Position numbers and translations under genes: made by a program. A model generated the notes under the pieces. It was given only the letters and a program-made list of their open reading frames with translations. It searched no databases and was not told the origin of the DNA. Below are positions 19,792-39,908 of a stretch of DNA of 64,000 nt, piece after piece (position 1 is the stretch's first letter; every line of letters starts with the position of its first letter). Source of the stretch: Trueperaceae bacterium (GTDB taxonomy: Bacteria > Deinococcota > Deinococci > Deinococcales > Trueperaceae); NCBI GenBank assembly GCA_965213925.1, contig OZ243927.1, forward strand, positions 864,001 to 928,000. The letters run 5' to 3'.

Positions 19792-20682
19792 ATGGACGAA
19801 TAAGAGACACTCATATTGACAAATTGTGTTGAGGAATACCTGAAAGCTCGTAATCTGGACGGCTACAGTGACAAAACGCTCTATTCCTACAGGCTGCATC
19901 TAAATCGTTTGACCGCAGATTTGGGCAATGCCACTCCTATCGACATTATCAAGCTCGAACATCTACGTTCTCACCTCACCAGCCTGACGCATCTGCAAAC
20001 CTCAAGTTTGGCGAACAAGGTCCGCGCCCTTAAAGCCTTTTTCAAGTGGCTCTACGAGGAGGAGATATTGGAGCGCAACCCCGCACTGAAGCTGAGGGAG
20101 CCGCGCTTACCCGCGAGAATCCCTAAAGCGCTTTCGGTTGAAGAAGTTGAGCTGCTGCGTGACGCCTGTGAGAGTTTATTGGAGCACGCCTTAGTCGAGT
20201 TCTTCTTCGCCACCGGCTGCCGTGTGAGCGAAATTCACCAACTGGACCGCATCGACCTCGACTGGGTGCGGCGCAGCGCAGTCGTGCTGGGCAAGGGTAA
20301 TAAGGAGCGCGAGGTGTACTTCGGAGCAAAAGCCGCGCTGTGGCTCAAACGATATCTCGACAGCCGAACGGATAGCTCTTTGGCGCTATTCGTTACGAAG
20401 CGACGAAGACGCCAGCATAGCGGGGCTTTAGAGCATCAGCGTCTCAGCACGTCGCAGATACAACGCATCTTTAAGCGTGTGGCGCGGCGGTGCGGCTTGG
20501 AGGAGAAAGTAACCCCTCACGTGCTGCGCCACACGCTCGCAACTCTTCTGCTAAACCAAGGTGCACCGATCGCTGCCGTGCAGTCCATCCTCGGGCACGC
20601 CTCGCCCACCACAACACAGCTCTATGTCAACCTCTCCGGTGAGTCGCGGCAGATGCTCTACAAAAGGCATTTCCCGCAGTAA
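19792..20682 (+). CDS. Tyrosine recombinase/integrase (XerC/D-like); ATG at 19792 is followed by an in-frame TAA at codon 4, and the ORF resumes at TTG 19816
   Basis: N-terminal SAM-like domain; catalytic R (TGCRVSE), K (GKGNKER), HxxR (HVLRH), H (LGH), Y (TTQLY). Confidence 0.9.
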
Positions 20683-32482: not shown

Positions 32483-32514
32483 TTACGCATTAGACGCGCG
32501 CATCACACGCACGA
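32483..32514. repeat. 32-bp candidate recombination site L
   Basis: TTACGCATTAGAC-GCGCGC-ATCACACGCACGA (its reverse complement shares the left arm of site H). Confidence 0.7.
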
Positions 32515-32581
32515 AGTCTATGCAAATCTCCGCCCGAACTCTGCCCCGGTACTTAGCTGAATACCGATTCCAGGCGGTGCC

Positions 32582-33298
32582 TCACTCAAGCTGACTCAGC
32601 GTCATGACGTTCCTGATCTTTTCCAGGTGCGCCGCCTCGACCTCCAGCCAGCTTTCCTCACGTTCTCCGCCCTCGCGCAGCTCCGCCGCAGCGAAGCCCG
32701 AGGGCTTTAGGTCGTCGATAAAAATGATGAGGAGCTCTTTGCGGCGGGCCGAGTCCGGGATATGAACGAGCCGCGCGTAGAAATACTCGTCAGGGTAGCT
32801 GTAGCCTTTGCCAGCAAGGAACTTGCGCACGAGGTAGCCGTCCGTTCCTGGTGAGCCAAGCCGCCAGAACCTAACGTCAATGCCTGCTGCTGTGTCCGTA
32901 TAGAAGTTGAGGCCGTCTATTTCGACTCGAAGCGGAGAGTCAGTGTAATCATAGGCGTAGTCGTTGCTAGGCAAAAAGCCTTCAAACTGCAGCCAGAAAA
33001 GGCTTTTCAAACTTCCGTCCGGATGCTCCTCGACGAAGAAATGCTGTTCAACATCAGCGGTGCCGTAGAGTTCGAACGTTTGACCGCCGATGTACTCGTA
33101 GTCTTCGTCAAACATCATGTTCATGGCGGGGTCGGCTCGCGAGGTAAGGGTACCGGCTGACACAGATTTTTCTAATTCGGCGAATTCAGGTGATGTCGTC
33201 AACCTACCGGGGTCTGTAAAGTAGAAGTAGATAGCGGCAGCAGCCACAGTGATGAGGGCGAGTCCGGCGGCGATCAGGATAATCCTCTTCATAAGCAC
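32582..33298 (-). CDS. Hypothetical membrane-anchored protein (single-gene cassette)
   Basis: N-terminal TM helix; bounded by sites L and M. Confidence 0.7.
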   Translation of the reverse strand: MLMKRIILIAAGLALITVAAAAIYFYFTDPGRLTTSPEFAELEKSVSAGTLTSRADPAMNMMFDEDYEYIGGQTFELYGTADVEQHFFVEEHPDGSLKSLFWLQFEGFLPSNDYAYDYTDSPLRVEIDGLNFYTDTAAGIDVRFWRLGSPGTDGYLVRKFLAGKGYSYPDEYFYARLVHIPDSARRKELLIIFIDDLKPSGFAAAELREGGEREESWLEVEAAHLEKIRNVMTLSQLE

Positions 33299-33326
33299 AT
33301 TTACTATAAAGCCTTCGCCTATTCCT

Positions 33327-33358
33327 CAAGGACACAGTTGCGCGCGTTCGCCGCACAA
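33327..33358. repeat. Candidate recombination site M (left arm degenerate)
   Basis: CAAGGACACAGTT-GCGCGC-GTTCGCCGCACAA. Confidence 0.7.
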
Positions 33359-33454: not shown

Positions 33455-35677
33455 CTATGGGGAGGTATACACCCAATTTAGAAGTGCGCCTTCAACGCCC
33501 CCCGACACCAGACTGTCGCCATCAGATGACCAATCAAGGGCGAGAGAGCCAAAATCACCGAACGTCGTTTGCTGATGCCCTTCCAACCCCGTAATTCTTT
33601 CACCGGTGGCTGCCACCCAAACATGCACGCCGTCGTCCGCCTTCGCTTCGTCATCGTAGGTTGAACCTGACGTGGCGAGCCGGTGACCGTCAGGGCTCCA
33701 CGCTAACTCGTCAATGCCGTAAGGCGCTTCGATTGTAGCTAATGTTTTCTCTGAAGTACTATCAATGATTTGAACTTTTCCGCTCGACCCGCCGACGGCG
33801 AGCCGCTGGCTGTCAGGACTCCAGGCGATAGTTTTCGGATCTCGGTCAATTGTGAACGTGTGCATAAGGCGGCTAGTTTCCGCGTCCCACACTTTGACCT
33901 CGTCATAGCCTCCTCCAGCGAGCTTTGTCCCATCAGGGCTCCACGCCAGAGTAAAAATAGGGCGATAGTCTTGAACCTCGAATGTTTTGAGTAAGCTACC
34001 TGTCGTCCCATCTCGCACCTTGATCGTGCCATCTTGACCCCCACTTGCCAATCTCGTGCCGTCCGGACTCCAGCCGACTGCGTATACCTCACCACGGTGC
34101 GCGTCAACCGAGAAGAGTTGTTTGCGCGTAGCCATATCCCAAATCTTTAGAGCGCCTTCGTTGTCCTGACCACTGGCGCTTGCTAATTTTGAACCGTCCG
34201 GGTGCCAAGCGATGGCGTGAACAAAAGTGTCAAGCTCCGCTAGTGTACCGAGGCTGCGCCCCGAGGCGGCCTCCCAAACCTTAACGGTTCCGTCGTAACC
34301 TCCGCTCGCTACCTTGCCTTCGTGCAATTTGACAGTGGCGACCCGAGCCGCGTGACCGTTCGACGACATGACCTTTTGTCCGCTCTCGGCGTTCCACACG
34401 CTAAACCAAGGGATGGTGTCGTCGGCCGCAAAACGGTCGCCGTCGGGGTGCCAGTCTGCTCCTAAGACCACTCGAGCCTTCCCTACGACGCGCAGCATTT
34501 CTCTGCCCGTAGCGGCGTCCCAGATTCTTAGTTCACCCTCAGTTCCACCCCCTAAGATGCGATTCGTATTGGGTTCCCAGGCTACGACCAGAGGTTGAAA
34601 GTAATCTTCGTCGTCATCTCTCAACAGGACGCGCACAGGCTGACCCGTGTCAGCGTCCCAGATCACGACCTTGCCGCCGTTGCCGCTACTCACAAACTGC
34701 GAGCTGTCGGCGTTCCAGTCGACGTCCCAGACCCCTCCGAAAACATCAATCTCATAGAGGTGTTCGCCGGTTTCTGCATTCCATACACTGATCGAACGGT
34801 CTCCACCTACGATCTTCTCGCCATCCTGACTCCACGCCACAGCGTTATAGGTGTAATTATCGAGGCTCCAAAGCTCCTGGCCGCTCGCTATGTCCCACAC
34901 CCGCAATAACGCGTCGCCGCAGCTAACAAGTTTAGTCCCATCCGGACTCCAAGCTATATCGGTGACTTCTTCTGTATGTCCGACTAGGTCGGCGACGACT
35001 TCGCCCGTTGCCACAGACCAAACTTTAAGGCTTCCGCCCTTAAACGGTGCACCCGAACCACTTGCCACGAAAAGTCCATCCGGACTAAATGCGACCGCTT
35101 CGGCTTTTGCCGAATAGGTGTCGGAATCGAAATGATCATCGAGAGTGAATTTTAGGCTTCCCGTGGTTGCGTCCCAAAGTTTGACCATGCCGTCTGCCCC
35201 GCTAGTCGCGAGCAACTGTCCAGTCGGGCTCCAATCTAAATAGCGGACCTCCGCTGTATGGCCTGCGCCGAGTTTCCAGGCTACGTTAGTAGAGGGTAAC
35301 TGCCCTTCAACTTCTATCTTGCGCGTCGCTTTCGAGGACGTGCTCTTTGCGGAAAGCGTATAAGTTGTCTCTCCAACCGACCAGACAGCAGCTTCGGATA
35401 AACCGCTGACGTCGCCTATATCTGGCTCGAGAGTGAGCGTCAGCGACTCATCGGGAACTTGCCAGCTCAGCTGTACAGCCTCTCCGGCGGGCACAGTGAG
35501 CGTGGAAGCGGTCAATGACGTGATTAAAGTGGGGTCTGTCTCGAGGTCGACCGGGTTGTTGCCGTCTTTTACCTCATGAGTACACGATACTAACAGAGCC
35601 AAACTAAGAAGGAGGGAGCCGACGAGCCGTCTTTGATAAAAAGCCCGCACGTTCAGGCTGCTGAAATAGCGTCTCAT
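33455..35677 (-). CDS. WD40-repeat lipoprotein (probable double beta-propeller)
   Basis: Lipobox-like LLVSC; about 14 GH...WSPDG...WD repeats; ATGA overlap with the upstream gene. Confidence 0.9.
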   Translation of the reverse strand: MRRYFSSLNVRAFYQRRLVGSLLLSLALLVSCTHEVKDGNNPVDLETDPTLITSLTASTLTVPAGEAVQLSWQVPDESLTLTLEPDIGDVSGLSEAAVWSVGETTYTLSAKSTSSKATRKIEVEGQLPSTNVAWKLGAGHTAEVRYLDWSPTGQLLATSGADGMVKLWDATTGSLKFTLDDHFDSDTYSAKAEAVAFSPDGLFVASGSGAPFKGGSLKVWSVATGEVVADLVGHTEEVTDIAWSPDGTKLVSCGDALLRVWDIASGQELWSLDNYTYNAVAWSQDGEKIVGGDRSISVWNAETGEHLYEIDVFGGVWDVDWNADSSQFVSSGNGGKVVIWDADTGQPVRVLLRDDDEDYFQPLVVAWEPNTNRILGGGTEGELRIWDAATGREMLRVVGKARVVLGADWHPDGDRFAADDTIPWFSVWNAESGQKVMSSNGHAARVATVKLHEGKVASGGYDGTVKVWEAASGRSLGTLAELDTFVHAIAWHPDGSKLASASGQDNEGALKIWDMATRKQLFSVDAHRGEVYAVGWSPDGTRLASGGQDGTIKVRDGTTGSLLKTFEVQDYRPIFTLAWSPDGTKLAGGGYDEVKVWDAETSRLMHTFTIDRDPKTIAWSPDSQRLAVGGSSGKVQIIDSTSEKTLATIEAPYGIDELAWSPDGHRLATSGSTYDDEAKADDGVHVWVAATGERITGLEGHQQTTFGDFGSLALDWSSDGDSLVSGGVEGALLNWVYTSP

Positions 35678-36798
35678 TTGAAGAAGAGGCTCCAAAGGAT
35701 AACTTCTGCTCCTCGGCTACCAGAGACGAGAAACTGGCCGTCCGAACTCCAATCAAGCGTGGTAACTGATCCGATATGACCTATAAGTGAAACAAGCTCT
35801 TGGCCGGTTATGGCGTTCCAGATTTGGACACTTTGGCCGTCGCCGCTGGCGGCGAGTTGAGTACCGTCAGGGCTCCAGCTAAGCCCATAGATAAAGCGGT
35901 TAACGTCTGAATATATAGTGAACGGCTCCGAAGGAGATATCAGGGTCCATACCTTAACCTTGGACGAGTCAAGCGTAGCGGCTAAACGCGTACCGTCAGG
36001 GCTCCAAGCCAAATTGTGCACGCTATCGTAAGTGTCAAGCCCTTTCAAGACAATTTCCTTGCTCGTCGCGACCTCCCAAACGCTAACGTCTCCCCACTGG
36101 TTGCCCGCTGCGAGAAAACGTCCATCTGGACTCCAGACGATGTCAGCGATGCGGCCGGAGATTCCAGAAAAAGACACGCCCTCAGTCCCGGTCGCAGCGT
36201 CCCAGGTCTTAATAGCGCCTATACCGCTGTCTTTTAATTCGCCTCCTGCCGAGCGGACGCCATCCGGCCCCCAGTCGATAATCGCTTCGTAGCTGCCTTC
36301 AATCGTAAGTTGAAGACCTCCAGATGTTACGTCCCAAGTCTTGAATCTAGCCACGCTACCTGTCCCAGCGCCAGGGACGATTTCATAATAAGCAGCTGTT
36401 GTAAAGGCGCTGCCATCAGGCTTCCAAGTTGCGTCATCGAAGCCTGGATAGCTATTGTCGGTGAGAGACGATAGTTTCGTTCCGGTTGTAGTCTGCCACA
36501 GGTAGGCAACACCATCACGGGCAACGCTTAAAACACGGCTGTTGTCTGGGCTGAAGGTTACGGCAGTCACCTCGTCTTGGTGCCCCGCCGCGAAGGTGGT
36601 AATGGTCAGATCCTTCGCAGCAGTGTCTGCATTCCATAGTCCAAGCGTGCCATCTGTGGCTCCTGTGAGAAGTTTAGTGCCCTCTGGATGCCAAGCAATG
36701 TCGGCTTCCCAGGAAGAAAGTCCCTCCGTCTCCTTAGCGCCCTTGAGTTCTCGCAGCGCAGACCCAGTTGAGGCATCAGCAAGAATGGCATGGAGATC
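35674..36798 (-). pseudogene. 5'-truncated WD40-repeat protein
   Basis: WD40 frame continues upstream of 36570 (DIAWHPEGTKLLTGATDGTLGLWNA) to about 36798, where cas5e sequence takes over. Confidence 0.8.
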
Positions 36799-36800
36799 CC

Positions 36801-37073
36801 TAGCCGATCTATCTCGGTCGGCGTGGCTACTATCCGAGCGTCCCGCTGTTTGTCATTGACGGGCTGAAAAAGGCGAGTTTGGAGGAGGCTATCGCTACCT
36901 ATCCCCGTGTCCTAGCCGATAAAGCGGTGCGGTTCGCCGACTGCCACATCGAAGGCAAAGGCAAGGTCGTACACGACCAGCCCGTCAGCTTCGCCACTCA
37001 TACCTTCGGACCCCGGAGGGTCTACCACTGCTGCGTCAGCAAGTTAGGAGCATCATGTACGTCACCGAACTGA
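36801..37073 (+). pseudogene. cas5e: C-terminal half of type I-E Cas5 (Cas5e/CasD)
   Basis: *PIYLGRRGYYPSVPLF...DQPVSFATHTFGPRRV matches the Cas5e LYLGRKSCxPSxP and DxPxSF...F..R motifs; overlaps the cas6e start. Confidence 0.8.
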
Positions 37074-37723
37074 CCTTAAACCAGGACAACCTCTTCGCCA
37101 TGCGCGACGTCGCCGACCGCTACGAGACGCACCGCTCTGTGAAGCGCTTGACCGAAGGGATGGAGCGCAGGGTTTTGTGGCGGCTCGACATGCAGCGTGA
37201 ATGGCGGCTCACGGTTCAATGTGAGCGTCCGCTCGAGCCGCGCTATGTGTCCAAGGCGATGCCCGGATACGCCGATCAAGTCCGGAGCGCGGAGGTTGCT
37301 ACGAATTTCGACCCTGGCGACCTGCTCCTCTTCCAGCTCGAGGCGAACCCGACCGTGAAGTGTGCCAAAAAGCGGCGGGCGCTAAAGAGTATGGCTGAGC
37401 TACAGGAGTGGCTACAAAGGAAGTTTGATGATGCAGGTTGTGAACTCCTAGACTTTGCAATCTTGAAGCAGCAAGCGTTACGGTTATATCGCCAGAAGAG
37501 GCCAGATGAACAAGAAAATGACGACGAGAATGGGTGTAAGTACGCCATGTTCAACAGCGTCAGGTTCATGGGCAGCACTAAAGTAGTAGACCTTAAAGCG
37601 CTCAAAGATACGCTCGAGGCTGGCATCGGCAGCGCGAAGGGATATGGCTTTGGGTTGCTCTCATTGCGACCTATCCCTTACAGAGACATAGCTGGAGTTA
37701 AAGTCTCAAAAAGCGTGTGTTGA
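37055..37723 (+). CDS. cas6e: Type I-E CRISPR endoribonuclease Cas6e/Cse3
   Basis: MYVTELTL, YETHR, VLWRLD, FQLEANPT, QEWLQRK, G-rich loop GIGSAKGYGFGLLSL. Confidence 0.93.
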   Translation: MYVTELTLNQDNLFAMRDVADRYETHRSVKRLTEGMERRVLWRLDMQREWRLTVQCERPLEPRYVSKAMPGYADQVRSAEVATNFDPGDLLLFQLEANPTVKCAKKRRALKSMAELQEWLQRKFDDAGCELLDFAILKQQALRLYRQKRPDEQENDDENGCKYAMFNSVRFMGSTKVVDLKALKDTLEAGIGSAKGYGFGLLSLRPIPYRDIAGVKVSKSVC

Positions 37724-37729
37724 TCGAGC

Positions 37730-37878
37730 CTTTTCCCCACTCGCGTGGGGGTGGCGCGGGCGACTGATGCGCCTCGCCCTACTCCTCGCCTTTTCCCCAC
37801 TCGCGTGGGGGTGGCGCGCAAACGGGCGCGGCGAAGGGCAAAGAGGGCATTCTTCCCCACATTGGTGGGGGCGGTACC
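37730..37878 (+). CRISPR. Type I-E mini-array: 2 identical repeats, 1 diverged terminal repeat, 2 spacers (60-bp period)
   Basis: CTTTTCCCCACTCGCGTGGGGGTGGCGCG at 37730 and 37790; TTCTTCCCCACATTGGTGGGGGCGGTACC at 37850; CCCCAC/GTGGGG stem plus 8-nt handle; starts 7 bp after the cas6e stop. Confidence 0.92.
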
Positions 37879-38048
37879 ATCAGCAGAGCAAATCAAAAGC
37901 GAAAGCTGGAGTAAGTCCAGTGCATCGCGGCGAATCGCCAAAATACATTGGACGGCTGATGTATAGAAATGTCGATATCCAAGACATTGGGCGCATGATG
38001 TTTGAAACTCTTGATTAGACGAGGACTTACAGGAAGGCGTAGCAACTC

Positions 38049-38711
38049 CTATGTTGCGACTGGATGTCGAATCTCTCCAATCATGAGTCCCATTACTATG
38101 CTCGATTGGAACCAGCAGAAATTCTCGTCAACAGGGGCACGAAGTACATCCGTGAAACGCAGGTCGTACCCGCAAATTACGCAACAGTGGAGTTCCTCTT
38201 CGTCACCTCTACCGATCACTATAGCGCTCCCATAGCTATCACACTCGGTGTGTAGAAAGTTCTTATGATGTACGCAAACGCTGCAAAAGCTATACATCCA
38301 CTCCCGCCGAAAGAAAGGTTGCGTGTCCTCGAGAAGGCAGCGCGGACAATATTGAGTTGTGACAATTGGTTTAGGAGTTTTCGTCTGACGTGGGCGGTGA
38401 GAAAGTAGCTCACGCGAGCGGACACTCGCGCTTTTAATGCGTACCCGTGTCGGCGCAAGCAGCGCTTCGATATCGCCCACTGCTTGACCCGTACCCCGAG
38501 CCAAAACCTCGACCACGCTTTCTAGCTGACTGCCCTTTCGGTCTCTTATCCCTTTAGGGATAAGAGACTTGAGCAGCTTTTTTCCACTCCGCTTCTCCAA
38601 CACCTTCCAAAATCTATCCCAAGCTAAGCCGTTGCTCACAGCCAACCTAGCAACCCAGGAAGCGAAACTCTCACCTTGAAACAGTGAAGCGTGATACAGC
38701 CACAAATCCAT
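38049..38711 (-). CDS. tniQ: TniQ family target-selector protein
   Basis: N-terminal LWLYHASLFQGESFASWVARLAVSNG; Zn-binding QYCPRCLLED..PFFRREW...CVHH...CCVICGYDL. Confidence 0.85.
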   Translation of the reverse strand: MDLWLYHASLFQGESFASWVARLAVSNGLAWDRFWKVLEKRSGKKLLKSLIPKGIRDRKGSQLESVVEVLARGTGQAVGDIEALLAPTRVRIKSASVRSRELLSHRPRQTKTPKPIVTTQYCPRCLLEDTQPFFRREWMYSFCSVCVHHKNFLHTECDSYGSAIVIGRGDEEELHCCVICGYDLRFTDVLRAPVDENFCWFQSSIVMGLMIGEIRHPVAT

Positions 38712-38834
38712 ATGACAGTGTAGCAAATAGAGCAGCTTTCTTCGAAAGGACTGAAGTTGTAAACCGCTTCGGAGATCGCCCGTATACAGCCACTTTGTGA
38801 TATTATGCAGATGTGCCCCGCCCGAGCCAGAGCG

Positions 38835-38880
38835 ATTCTCAGTATTCTTTACCTATTCTCAAAATTCTTTGTTTCTGACA
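38835..38880 (-). mobile_element. Tn7-like transposon end (terminal TGT plus two putative TnsB-binding repeats)
   Basis: Minus strand reads TGTCAGAAAC-AAAGAATTTTGAGAAT-AGGT-AAAGAATACTGAGAAT; repeats at 38855-38870 and 38835-38850, 20-bp period. Confidence 0.7.
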
Positions 38881-38883
38881 CAC

Positions 38884-39908
38884 CTATTCGAATAGAGGCG
38901 ACTGCGGCGGATAGTTCGTAATCATGACCTCTTTGCCCTTCGCCGCGCCCTCTTGCTTATAGTTGTTCATCCCGTACTGAAGTTCCCAAGGGACGATGTG
39001 CGCAAATGAAAAGAGCGCCCTGACCTCTTCGCAATCGTCATAAGTGATGAGCCATTTGTGCTTCACCTTTTGCATCACGGCGGCAAAACGCTCGTGATCG
39101 AAGGTCGTGTGCAGCTTCCCTTTTTTGCCGTAGAGCTTTGACTTTGTAGCGGATAAATAGGGCGGGTCCAGGAAAATAAAGACGTTTTCGCCGCCTAACG
39201 CACCGGGAGACCCGGATGCTGCGGACCCTAAACCCGGATGCTGCGGACCCTAACGCACCGGGAGACCCGGATTTCGCCGGACCCTAACGCACCGGGAGAC
39301 CCGGATGCTGCGGACCCTAACGCACCGGGAGACCCGGATGCTGCGGACCCTAACGCACCGGGAGACCCGGATGCTGCGGATGGCGCTAAGACGACCTCTT
39401 CGTAGTCGAGATTGGTAATCTTGGTCCCTTCAAGAAGAGGGGCGACGCGCCGTAAACGCCCTATCGAGGACTGCGTGAAGCGCTTTTCAAATGCACCTTG
39501 CGAATAGCCGCCCGCTTCGACCGTGCCCGAAAAGGTGATGCGGTTGAGGAGAAAAAAGCGGATGGCTCTGTGTAAGGGTGCGTCGGGTACGTTATCGACC
39601 AATGAGCGGTGCAGCGTGCGTCCGTCTGTCACCGTATCTTTCTGCTGCTGCACGCCTTCGACGAGCGCCTCTGGGCAATCGCGTAGGTAAAGCCAGAAGT
39701 GGTAAAGCTCTGCGTTGAGGTCGCTAATCCAGAACGAGGCGTTTGGGTGTTGCTGCCGCAAAGCTAAAAAGACAGAGCCGCCCCCTATGAAGGGTTCGCG
39801 GAACTCGCTGAACGTTGGAACGAGCGGCAGGATGGTTTTAAGTGCTTTTGCCTTACCGCCTGGATACCTCAGCGGTGTTTTTACCGAAGTGAAAAGACCG
39901 TCTTGCAT
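38884..39908 (-). CDS. dam: Dam-family (D12 class) DNA adenine methyltransferase, frameshifted within a 33-bp tandem repeat as assembled
   Basis: TPLRYPGGK, EPFIGGGSVF, SDLN in 39228..39908; FIFLDPPY, FDHERF, WLITYDD, EVMITNY in the downstream frame. Confidence 0.85.
38924..38958 (-). other. Protospacer for CRISPR spacer 2 with 5' AAG PAM, in the 3' end of dam
   Basis: Minus strand AAG|CAAGAGGGCGCGGCGAAGGGCAAAGAGGTCAT versus spacer CAAACGGGCGCGGCGAAGGGCAAAGAGGGCAT: 29/32. Confidence 0.9.
39194..39380. repeat. 33-bp tandem repeat (about 5.5 copies, two aberrant)
   Basis: Unit CCTAACGCACCGGGAGACCCGGATGCTGCGGAC (GSAASGSPGAL); one 22-bp and one 34-bp copy. Confidence 0.9.

Follow-up and report, generated by a model that had tools for sequence, protein, structure and literature searches.

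The locus described here raises the question whether a Tn7-like transposon has taken over a type I-E Cascade and lets its guide RNA choose the insertion site. It lies in a stretch of 64,000 nucleotides (the window; positions 864,001 to 928,000 of contig OZ243927.1, assembly GCA_965213925.1) from a Trueperaceae bacterium, whose genome is called G000 below. Between 36.8 and 39.0 kb of the window, the 3' third of cas5e is followed by cas6e, a CRISPR mini-array, a tniQ gene facing them, a transposon end and the 3' end of a host dam-family methyltransferase gene. We propose that the locus holds the decayed remains of the target-proximal end of a Tn7-like transposon, one of a set of TniQ-dependent, RNA-guided CRISPR-associated transposons (CASTs) of type I-E, a reading that the sequences make very likely. 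Together with nine relatives in the phylum, it forms a set of ten loci with the look of a new CAST variant, which is Tn7-like, TniQ-dependent and of type I-E. With clearly less assurance, we lean towards a wider claim: at least two independent TniQ-coupled captures of type I-E in one order, forming a CAST subtype that has not been described, in which two layouts occur, Cas8e-Cas11 fusions recur and some members are still active and reprogrammable.

The transposon end beside dam

Between the last spacer of the mini-array (Table 1) and the 3' end of dam, 28 of 31 positions agree; the mismatches are at 4, 5 and 29, and an AAG protospacer adjacent motif (PAM) lies directly 5' of the match. None of 500 shuffled versions of this spacer reached 3 mismatches in 20 kb; the best had 9. 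The insertion point lies 3 nt beyond the dam stop codon. In a genome of the same genus (G001), dam is present without the element, homology stops exactly at the transposon end, and the direct repeat CACCTAT is found in a single copy.

Ends in three other genomes (G054, G002 and G001) can be aligned with the near end (G000:C1:902,880), as can a far end at C1:794,968. This far end matches the near one in inverted orientation, and no other new site in the genome fits a weight matrix built from six ends as well (score 24.6; next best 17.7). A far end had been expected beside hisA from the gene order in G001 and was absent there. From end to end, the element spans 107,913 bp. The target duplication would be 7 bp with tips TG(A/T)CAG, or 5 bp (CCTAT) with TGTGTC as the near tip. 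CACCTAT could also be the product of two successive 5-bp insertions with an offset of 2 bp.

Cas6e and part of Cas5e are the only type I-E Cascade components encoded in the window. By tblastn, the cas5e fragment is 62% identical over 89 aa to residues 133-220 of Cas5e in G054, a genome of another genus in the same family, and 37% identical to the canonical cas5e of the host. Cas6e (PF08798, E 3.6e-34; TIGR01907 score above the cut-off) is 58% identical to its G054 counterpart and 36% to the canonical Cas6e of the host. The array begins only 7 bp beyond the cas6e stop codon and is thus leaderless. Its repeat folds into a 7-bp stem with a 4-nt loop, resembling the canonical I-E repeat of the host, from which it differs at 7 of 29 positions. 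For spacer 1, the best match in G000 has 6 mismatches (C1:2,549,563) and was rejected as a target for want of a good PAM; nothing was found at 3 or fewer mismatches in 127 other family genomes, and there was no exact 22-nt match in viral contigs. The TniQ open frame (38049..38711; PF06527, E 2.3e-17) comprises 220 aa up to the TAG. The frame runs on to 272 codons, the length of the homolog P0002 (272 aa), with which it shares 55% identity over 268 aa. A predicted complex of Cas6e and TniQ scored 0.31, the mark being 0.32.

An earlier note, made from the letters of the window, had described a CAST within about 2.1 kb, composed of a cas5e fragment, cas6e, a leaderless I-E mini-array, tniQ, a transposon end and a spacer target just outside that end. 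All of these parts stand, on the evidence of Pfam, tblastn and the 28/31 match; the profile checks it had called for identified Cas6e with both models and TniQ with PF06527. The extent does not stand, as the other end lies outside the window. The note had further suggested looking to the left for that end, which is there, and for tnsABC, which is not. It had seen no tnsABC or cas8e/11/7 in the window, and tblastn extends this absence to the whole of G000 (completeness 96.9%): queries with TnsA, TnsB, TnsC, Cas7 and Cas8 of a relative found only the canonical I-E locus, 3 Mb away. Its description of the copy as decayed is likewise borne out by the premature TAG in tniQ, the truncated cas5e and the missing genes. 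As tniQ is interrupted and tnsABC and cas8/11/7 are gone, the window copy is a dead remnant that cannot move by itself.

The tniQ loss looks recent, because a public contig from run X1, of a near-identical strain (8 differences in 1,427 bp), reads a Trp codon at the stop position, while a contig from run X2 keeps the stop. The two runs come from one sample and may include the source of the window. At the left edge of the locus, a WD40-repeat gene meets the cas5e fragment at CCTAG (36799-36803). The X1 contigs break at this junction with different loose ends on each side, which suggests a deletion linked to an insertion sequence (IS); these flanks are absent from G000. That the window might instead be a chimeric or mis-assembled juxtaposition is extremely improbable. 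Public contigs do break at the WD40/cas5e junction and at a repeat within dam. Against this stand single public contigs that span 36803-37757 and 37790-39216 (X1) and 37747-38997 (X2), one of which may be the window source, and a matching gene order in G054, G001 and G018. Mis-assembly is thereby largely refuted for the part from tniQ through the end to dam.

The repeat in question lies at 39177-39372, where a 33-bp unit, present once in G001, is expanded to about six copies, and units of 22 and 34 bp shift the frame in the assembly. Since public contigs break there, the expansion may be an assembly artefact; it may also be a phase-variable switch.

The part of the 108-kb region inside the window carries an arsenate reductase gene, a dehalogenase-like gene, regulators and a tyrosine recombinase gene (19816-20682). 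Some accessory genes of the region have homologs elsewhere in G001 and G002, so movement of the whole 108 kb as one unit does not follow. A 9-kb one-ended remnant at rraA in G001 (L020-L021) holds cargo genes that match G000 C1:818-820 kb and 893 kb. An 854-bp segment of the window with a 238-aa gene (32492-33345) is 100% identical to G000:C1:3,461,587-3,462,440. A second, older tniQ scrap with a worn end lies at G000:C1:3,260,224-3,260,364 (L024); at the same host site, G002 (L019) keeps a clear end and the first tniQ codons.

Table 1. Features of the element and its target, in window coordinates.
Feature	Position	Strand	Basis or remark
WD40-repeat gene, probable cargo	35674..36800	-	WD40 Pfam matches; 5' side cut, frame open to about 36800
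cas5e 3' fragment, about 89 codons	36804..37073	+	tblastn to G054 Cas5e and host canonical cas5e
cas6e, 222 aa, open frame	37055..37723	+	PF08798, TIGR01907
Leaderless mini-array	37730..37878	+	Two identical 29-nt repeats and a degenerate third; two 31-nt spacers
Array repeats	37730-58, 37790-818 (identical), 37850-78 (degenerate)	+	
Spacer 1, 31 nt	37759..37789	+	
Spacer 2, 31 nt, homing guide, last in array	37819..37849	+	28/31 match to dam 3' end
tniQ, 272 codons, premature TAG at codon 221 (38049-51)	37893..38711	-	PF06527; faces cas operon
Target-proximal transposon end TGTCAG..., two TnsB-like sites 20 bp apart	38835..38880	-	Alternative tip at 38882
Direct repeat CACCTAT	38881..38887	+	Also directly outside far end; target duplication
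Host dam-family methyltransferase gene, target	38884..39908	-	PF02086
Protospacer in dam 3' end	38925..38955	-	
AAG PAM, 75 nt from transposon end	38956..38958	-	

Relatives in two layouts

The layout of the window locus recurs in G054, where the operon is complete. Here, tnsA, tnsB, tnsC, a cas8e/cas11 fusion, cas7e, cas5e, cas6e and a two-spacer array lie on one strand and face a tniQ (272 aa) that adjoins the end. TnsA, TnsB, TnsC, the fused Cse1 and Cse2, Cas7e, Cas5e, Cas6e and TniQ were all confirmed with Pfam, and the Cascade subunits match I-E models only (Pfam, NCBIfam and PADLOC), not those of I-F. The fusion protein has 590 aa and recurs in P0153 and P0154 (82% and 62%). TnsB has candidate D, D and E residues near 238, 313 and 349, motifs that were judged by eye. 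An arginase-like gene (named from our reading of its sequence) is matched at its 3' end by the last spacer, with AAG and mismatches at 12 and 30 only, and the transposon end lies 74 nt from the PAM; in G005, the site after this gene is empty. The G054 ends are 48,985 bp apart. Beyond the far end come ACCT and another copy of the near end, suggesting that this site received more than one insertion. Inside the element, divergent from tnsA, is a gene for a 564-aa tyrosine recombinase (L036, 9962-11656).

Two further loci share this layout (group 1). In G018, cas8e and cas11e are separate genes, and a spacer matches the 3' end of pilT, with AAG and a distance of 74 or 76 nt. The G001 copy, at ruvC, is highly diverged (TniQ 26% and Cas7 27% identical to those of G054). 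Two array-less end remnants, in G002 and at rraA in G001, have AAG exactly 74 nt upstream. A spacing of 74-76 nt is thus found at five of six group-1 sites; the background frequency of AAG at this distance is 5.4%. G000 holds empty sites at rraA and ruvC. No second TniQ or TnsD was seen in the I-E operons. At least four further Tn7-like elements, with long TnsD-type proteins, are found elsewhere in G001 (L039, L040, L069, L070).

These relatives bear on three further proposals of the earlier note. The idea that a Tn7-like element co-opted a type I-E Cascade gains support from the full G054 operon, in which the cas genes are linked to tnsA, tnsB and tnsC. An empty site downstream of dam, which it had named as a test, is the one found in G001. 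Its homing guide holds for spacer 2 and dam; the relatives were expected beside dam as well, and this part fails, as each has a target gene of its own.

We surveyed 326 genomes of the phylum that are at least 80% complete. TniQ was found in 66 genomes (112 matches) and Cas7e in 106 (115 matches, a tally that includes the unpublished G110, a genome used for no other claim). Coordinates were compared for the genomes on both lists (33 Cas7e and 55 TniQ rows): for nine Cas7e loci the distance to a TniQ is 2.4-4.2 kb, against 24 kb for the next closest. Three of the nine belong to group 1. The other six, all in family f5, form group 2: L131 (G028), L133 (G036), L134 (G265), L136 (G263), L138 (G267) and L139 (G257). 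Queries for cas3 and cas1, which do match other I-E loci, gave no tblastn match in the regions around the nine loci (about 92 kb for the closest relative, G054; four contigs are short).

In group 2, the order is tnsA-tnsB-tnsC-tniQ-cas6e-array-cas8e-cas7e-cas5e on one strand, with 3-7 spacers. TniQ was found with PF06527, and TnsA, TnsB and TnsC are linked to the cas genes, as in G054 and G001. Cas5e is short (144-171 aa), and G265 has the Cse2 domain fused to Cas8e, G257 has it as a separate gene, and in G028 and G036 it was not detected. The G263 contig ends at tniQ and the G257 locus is split over two contigs. In four of the six loci, the last spacer matches a host gene beside tnsA and points at it: G265 with AAA and 3 mismatches, G257 with AAG and 6, G267 with AAG and 7 in 27, and G036 with AAG and 8. 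Nearly all of these mismatches fall at every third base. With the window included, eight of the ten loci have a spacer that matches the flanking host gene, a different gene each time, and every one of the eight matches beats 500 of 500 shuffles.

FastTree phylogenies place TnsB, TnsC and TniQ of group 2 with one non-CRISPR Tn7-like set and those of G054 with another (TnsB supports 0.999 and 0.986); the trees have 15, 24 and 36 rows and were midpoint-rooted, with no one-clade test. On these sequences, two separate captures of I-E are favoured. The Cas7 proteins of the elements are 25-33% identical to the canonical protein of G000 and sit on long branches in a quick tree. No conclusion is drawn from this tree on the monophyly of group-1 Cas7, because a frameshifted tail misplaces the G018 protein.

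Wider scans returned no further members. Among genome contigs, a pattern scan with P0002 gave no relatives in 70 candidates and one with the G054 TnsB only a 27-residue match; a scan of metagenome contigs with a TniQ alignment gave none in 82. With group-2 Cas7 as the query, 80 of 414 loci were returned, at 29-36% identity; 66 of these have cas3 or cas1 matches and none has a tns or tniQ match. Tblastn against plasmids with the G054 Cas7 gave only matches below 60%, the best at about 30%. The pattern scans do not bound the range of these elements, since they need near-exact words and may leave out genomes near the window. I-E genes are absent from the surroundings of short TniQs in G235, G264, G032, G224, G144 and others. 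The f5 and f2 genomes also contain TniQ-family genes (320-390 aa), short or in tandem, with neither tns nor I-E genes close by (L111, L112, L113, L119, L120, L128).

Proposed target choice by the guide RNA

What is read directly from the DNA comprises the gene content, the two ends with the direct repeat beside them, the empty site, the match of guide and target with its PAM, and the like spacing at independent sites. The following model builds on them, with CRISPR RNA (crRNA) processing, Cascade assembly, the contacts between TniQ, Cascade and TnsC and the cut-and-paste chemistry modelled on I-F3, I-B and I-D CASTs. Cas6e would cut the transcript of the mini-array, and the last guide would load into a Cascade of Cas8e(-Cas11), Cas7e, Cas5e and Cas6e. 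This complex would read the AAG PAM and pair with a conserved host gene, and as there is no Cas3 the target would be bound and left uncut. The short TniQ may then link the PAM-distal end of Cascade to TnsC, which would direct insertion by TnsA and TnsB about 74-76 nt from the PAM. The element would thus usually land just outside the reading frame, with its tniQ end next to the target.

RNA-guided target choice is indicated because the spacer changes with the insertion site while the PAM, the side and, in group 1, the distance stay fixed. This is the strongest argument, and it is predicted by neither of two alternatives. In the first, the element is guided by a protein (TnsD/TniQ), and the Cas3-less I-E Cascade is cargo whose self-matching spacer represses or guards the flanking gene. 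I-E operons that lack both Cas3 and TniQ do exist in the phylum (G204, G308, G254), and defence cargo is common in Tn7-like elements, G054 itself carrying Ssp and BREX genes. Such cargo would leave unexplained why each of eight elements lies at a different host gene, which is matched by the element's own last spacer, pointing at the element, and why five of the six group-1 sites share one spacing. The group-1 TniQs are also short (252-297 aa), whereas most TniQ-family matches in the census are open frames of more than 400 aa. We consider this alternative unlikely. The three cited operons are divergent I-E Cascade loci (L176, L177 and L178), without a cas3, cas1 or tns match in the stretch examined; the one in G308 sits among plasmid-like or integrative-and-conjugative-element-like genes.

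In the second alternative, host Cas1-Cas2 acquired the spacers from flanking DNA after insertion, and the match is a result of the insertion and not its cause. A source of such enzymes exists, as canonical I-E loci with cas1 and cas3 lie elsewhere in G000 and G001. The arrays, however, are leaderless, and most mismatches are spaced at every third base, a pattern that a guide derived from another copy of the gene would show. Two remnants without any array still show AAG at 74 nt, and neither a fixed side nor a fixed distance is expected from acquisition. Later acquisition therefore seems very unlikely, and guide-directed insertion is the reading that we retain.

Several observations weigh against that reading. 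Transposition, crRNA and protein contacts are all predictions from sequence. The window guide carries its mismatches at 4 and 5 within the seed. The target duplications, 7 (or 5) bp in G000 and 4 bp (ACCT) in G054, are not a clean 5 bp. No group-1 copy is flawless: TnsC of G054 has VVSH where a Walker B DE is expected (DE in G001 and G036, DD in G265), the G001 element has an IS in tnsB and a split cas8, and in G018 cas7 is split and the contig carries no tns genes. The single spacer of the G001 element matches ruvC with 7 mismatches, a CAG PAM and a distance of 69 nt, and the start codon of ruvC is lost through this insertion. For the G001 elements at ruvC and rraA and for that in G018, no far end was found. 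In group 2, no local target was found for two of the six loci (G028, and G263, whose contig ends before the flank), and TGT candidates for the end lie at 73-93 nt. Present activity in group 1 is put in doubt by the degenerate Walker B motif of G054, the broken state of the other copies and the two seed mismatches of the window guide.

Two smaller observations concern these sites. An in-frame TTG within the G001 transposon end (L041, 11012-11030) could supply a new ruvC start. A TGTA motif 114-119 nt from the PAM was considered as the group-2 end and rejected, as it resembles a promoter -10 box.

Comparison with known systems

The pairing of I-E with a Tn7-like element had been called rarely reported in the earlier note. 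An I-E CAST is indeed in print, the telomeric I-E5 system of Streptomyces, and it is a different system that lacks TniQ. In the available parts of the 2025 classification (PMC12669027), class 1 CASTs comprise I-F3, I-B2, I-D, I-C, IV-A, Mu-linked I-A and I-E5, and the Tn7-like ones only I-F, I-B, I-D, I-C and IV-A; the sole I-E CAST there has no TniQ, and I-E4 is listed with a PD-DExK nuclease. 'I-E' does not occur in the main text or three supplements of Faure et al. 2023 (PMC10293859). In the accessible sections of the respective preprints, the only I-E systems reported by Rybarski et al. are those with non-Tn7 Rpn proteins (bioRxiv 10.1101/2021.08.16.456562), and Benler et al. describe Tn7-like elements in Deinococcus-Thermus without mention of I-E (bioRxiv 10.1101/2021.08.23.457393). 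No such system is named in the available portions of PMC11300857, PMC12774636 and PMC13628664. The searchable literature, a scope that leaves out subscription papers, patents and bioRxiv supplements, yielded no TniQ-bearing I-E CAST, and we think it likely that such a system is unreported.

Type I-E is the best-studied Cascade, and a TniQ-dependent I-E CAST would fill a gap in the class 1 list. If the proposal is true, one or two independent captures are added to CAST evolution. It also becomes possible to test how a short TniQ couples to a Cascade that has Cas11, reads an AAG PAM and uses a 7-bp hairpin. As a programmable integrase, the elements are candidates that would combine a compact effector with a cargo inferred to be large (49 kb and 108 kb from end to end).

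With canonical I-E systems, the elements share the subunit families, the repeat hairpin and the AAG PAM; they differ in having no cas3 or cas1 nearby and no leader-bearing long array, and in the distant Cas7. The Rpn-associated loci, as far as the accessible text of Rybarski et al. describes them (bioRxiv 10.1101/2021.08.16.456562), also have an I-E Cascade without Cas3 and, in some cases, self-targeting spacers; they are non-Tn7, encode an Rpn/PDDEXK protein and have neither TnsABC nor TniQ. The I-E5 CAST, according to the available sections of Hsieh et al. (bioRxiv 10.1101/2024.11.13.623437), likewise ties a type I-E Cascade to a transposase without cas1-cas2. It is a one-ended TnsBC element, not Tn7-like, with intact Cas3, no TniQ and no protospacer next to the element end, whereas the elements described here have TnsA, TniQ, two ends and an adjacent protospacer, and no Cas3.

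The I-D and I-B CASTs represent Tn7-like captures of a type I Cascade with TniQ, as here, with another Cas subtype and PAM. In the accessible part of PMC9881144, insertion by the I-D McCAST takes place 75 +/- 6 bp from the PAM, and one end faces the target. I-D has a second, protein-based route to a tRNA gene, whereas the chromosomal site here is matched by the guide.

The I-F3 CASTs (Tn6677, Tn7016/PseCAST) are another close parallel. They share TnsA, TnsB, TnsC, a short TniQ and a Cas3-less Cascade, together with a small array in which the last spacer, beside a degenerate repeat, is directed at a conserved host gene, at a fixed spacing. The best solved-structure matches of the G054 TnsB are the TnsB proteins of Pse (E 7e-24) and Tn6677 (E 1e-15). 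The effector differs: here it is an I-E Cascade (Cse1, Cse2, Cas7e, Cas5e, Cas6e) with an AAG PAM and a repeat with a 7-bp stem. I-F3 has a Cas8-Cas5 fusion, whereas the fusion found here joins Cas8e and Cas11. The arrangement differs too: in group 1, tnsC leads on to the cas genes within one operon, and tniQ lies at the transposon end, facing them.

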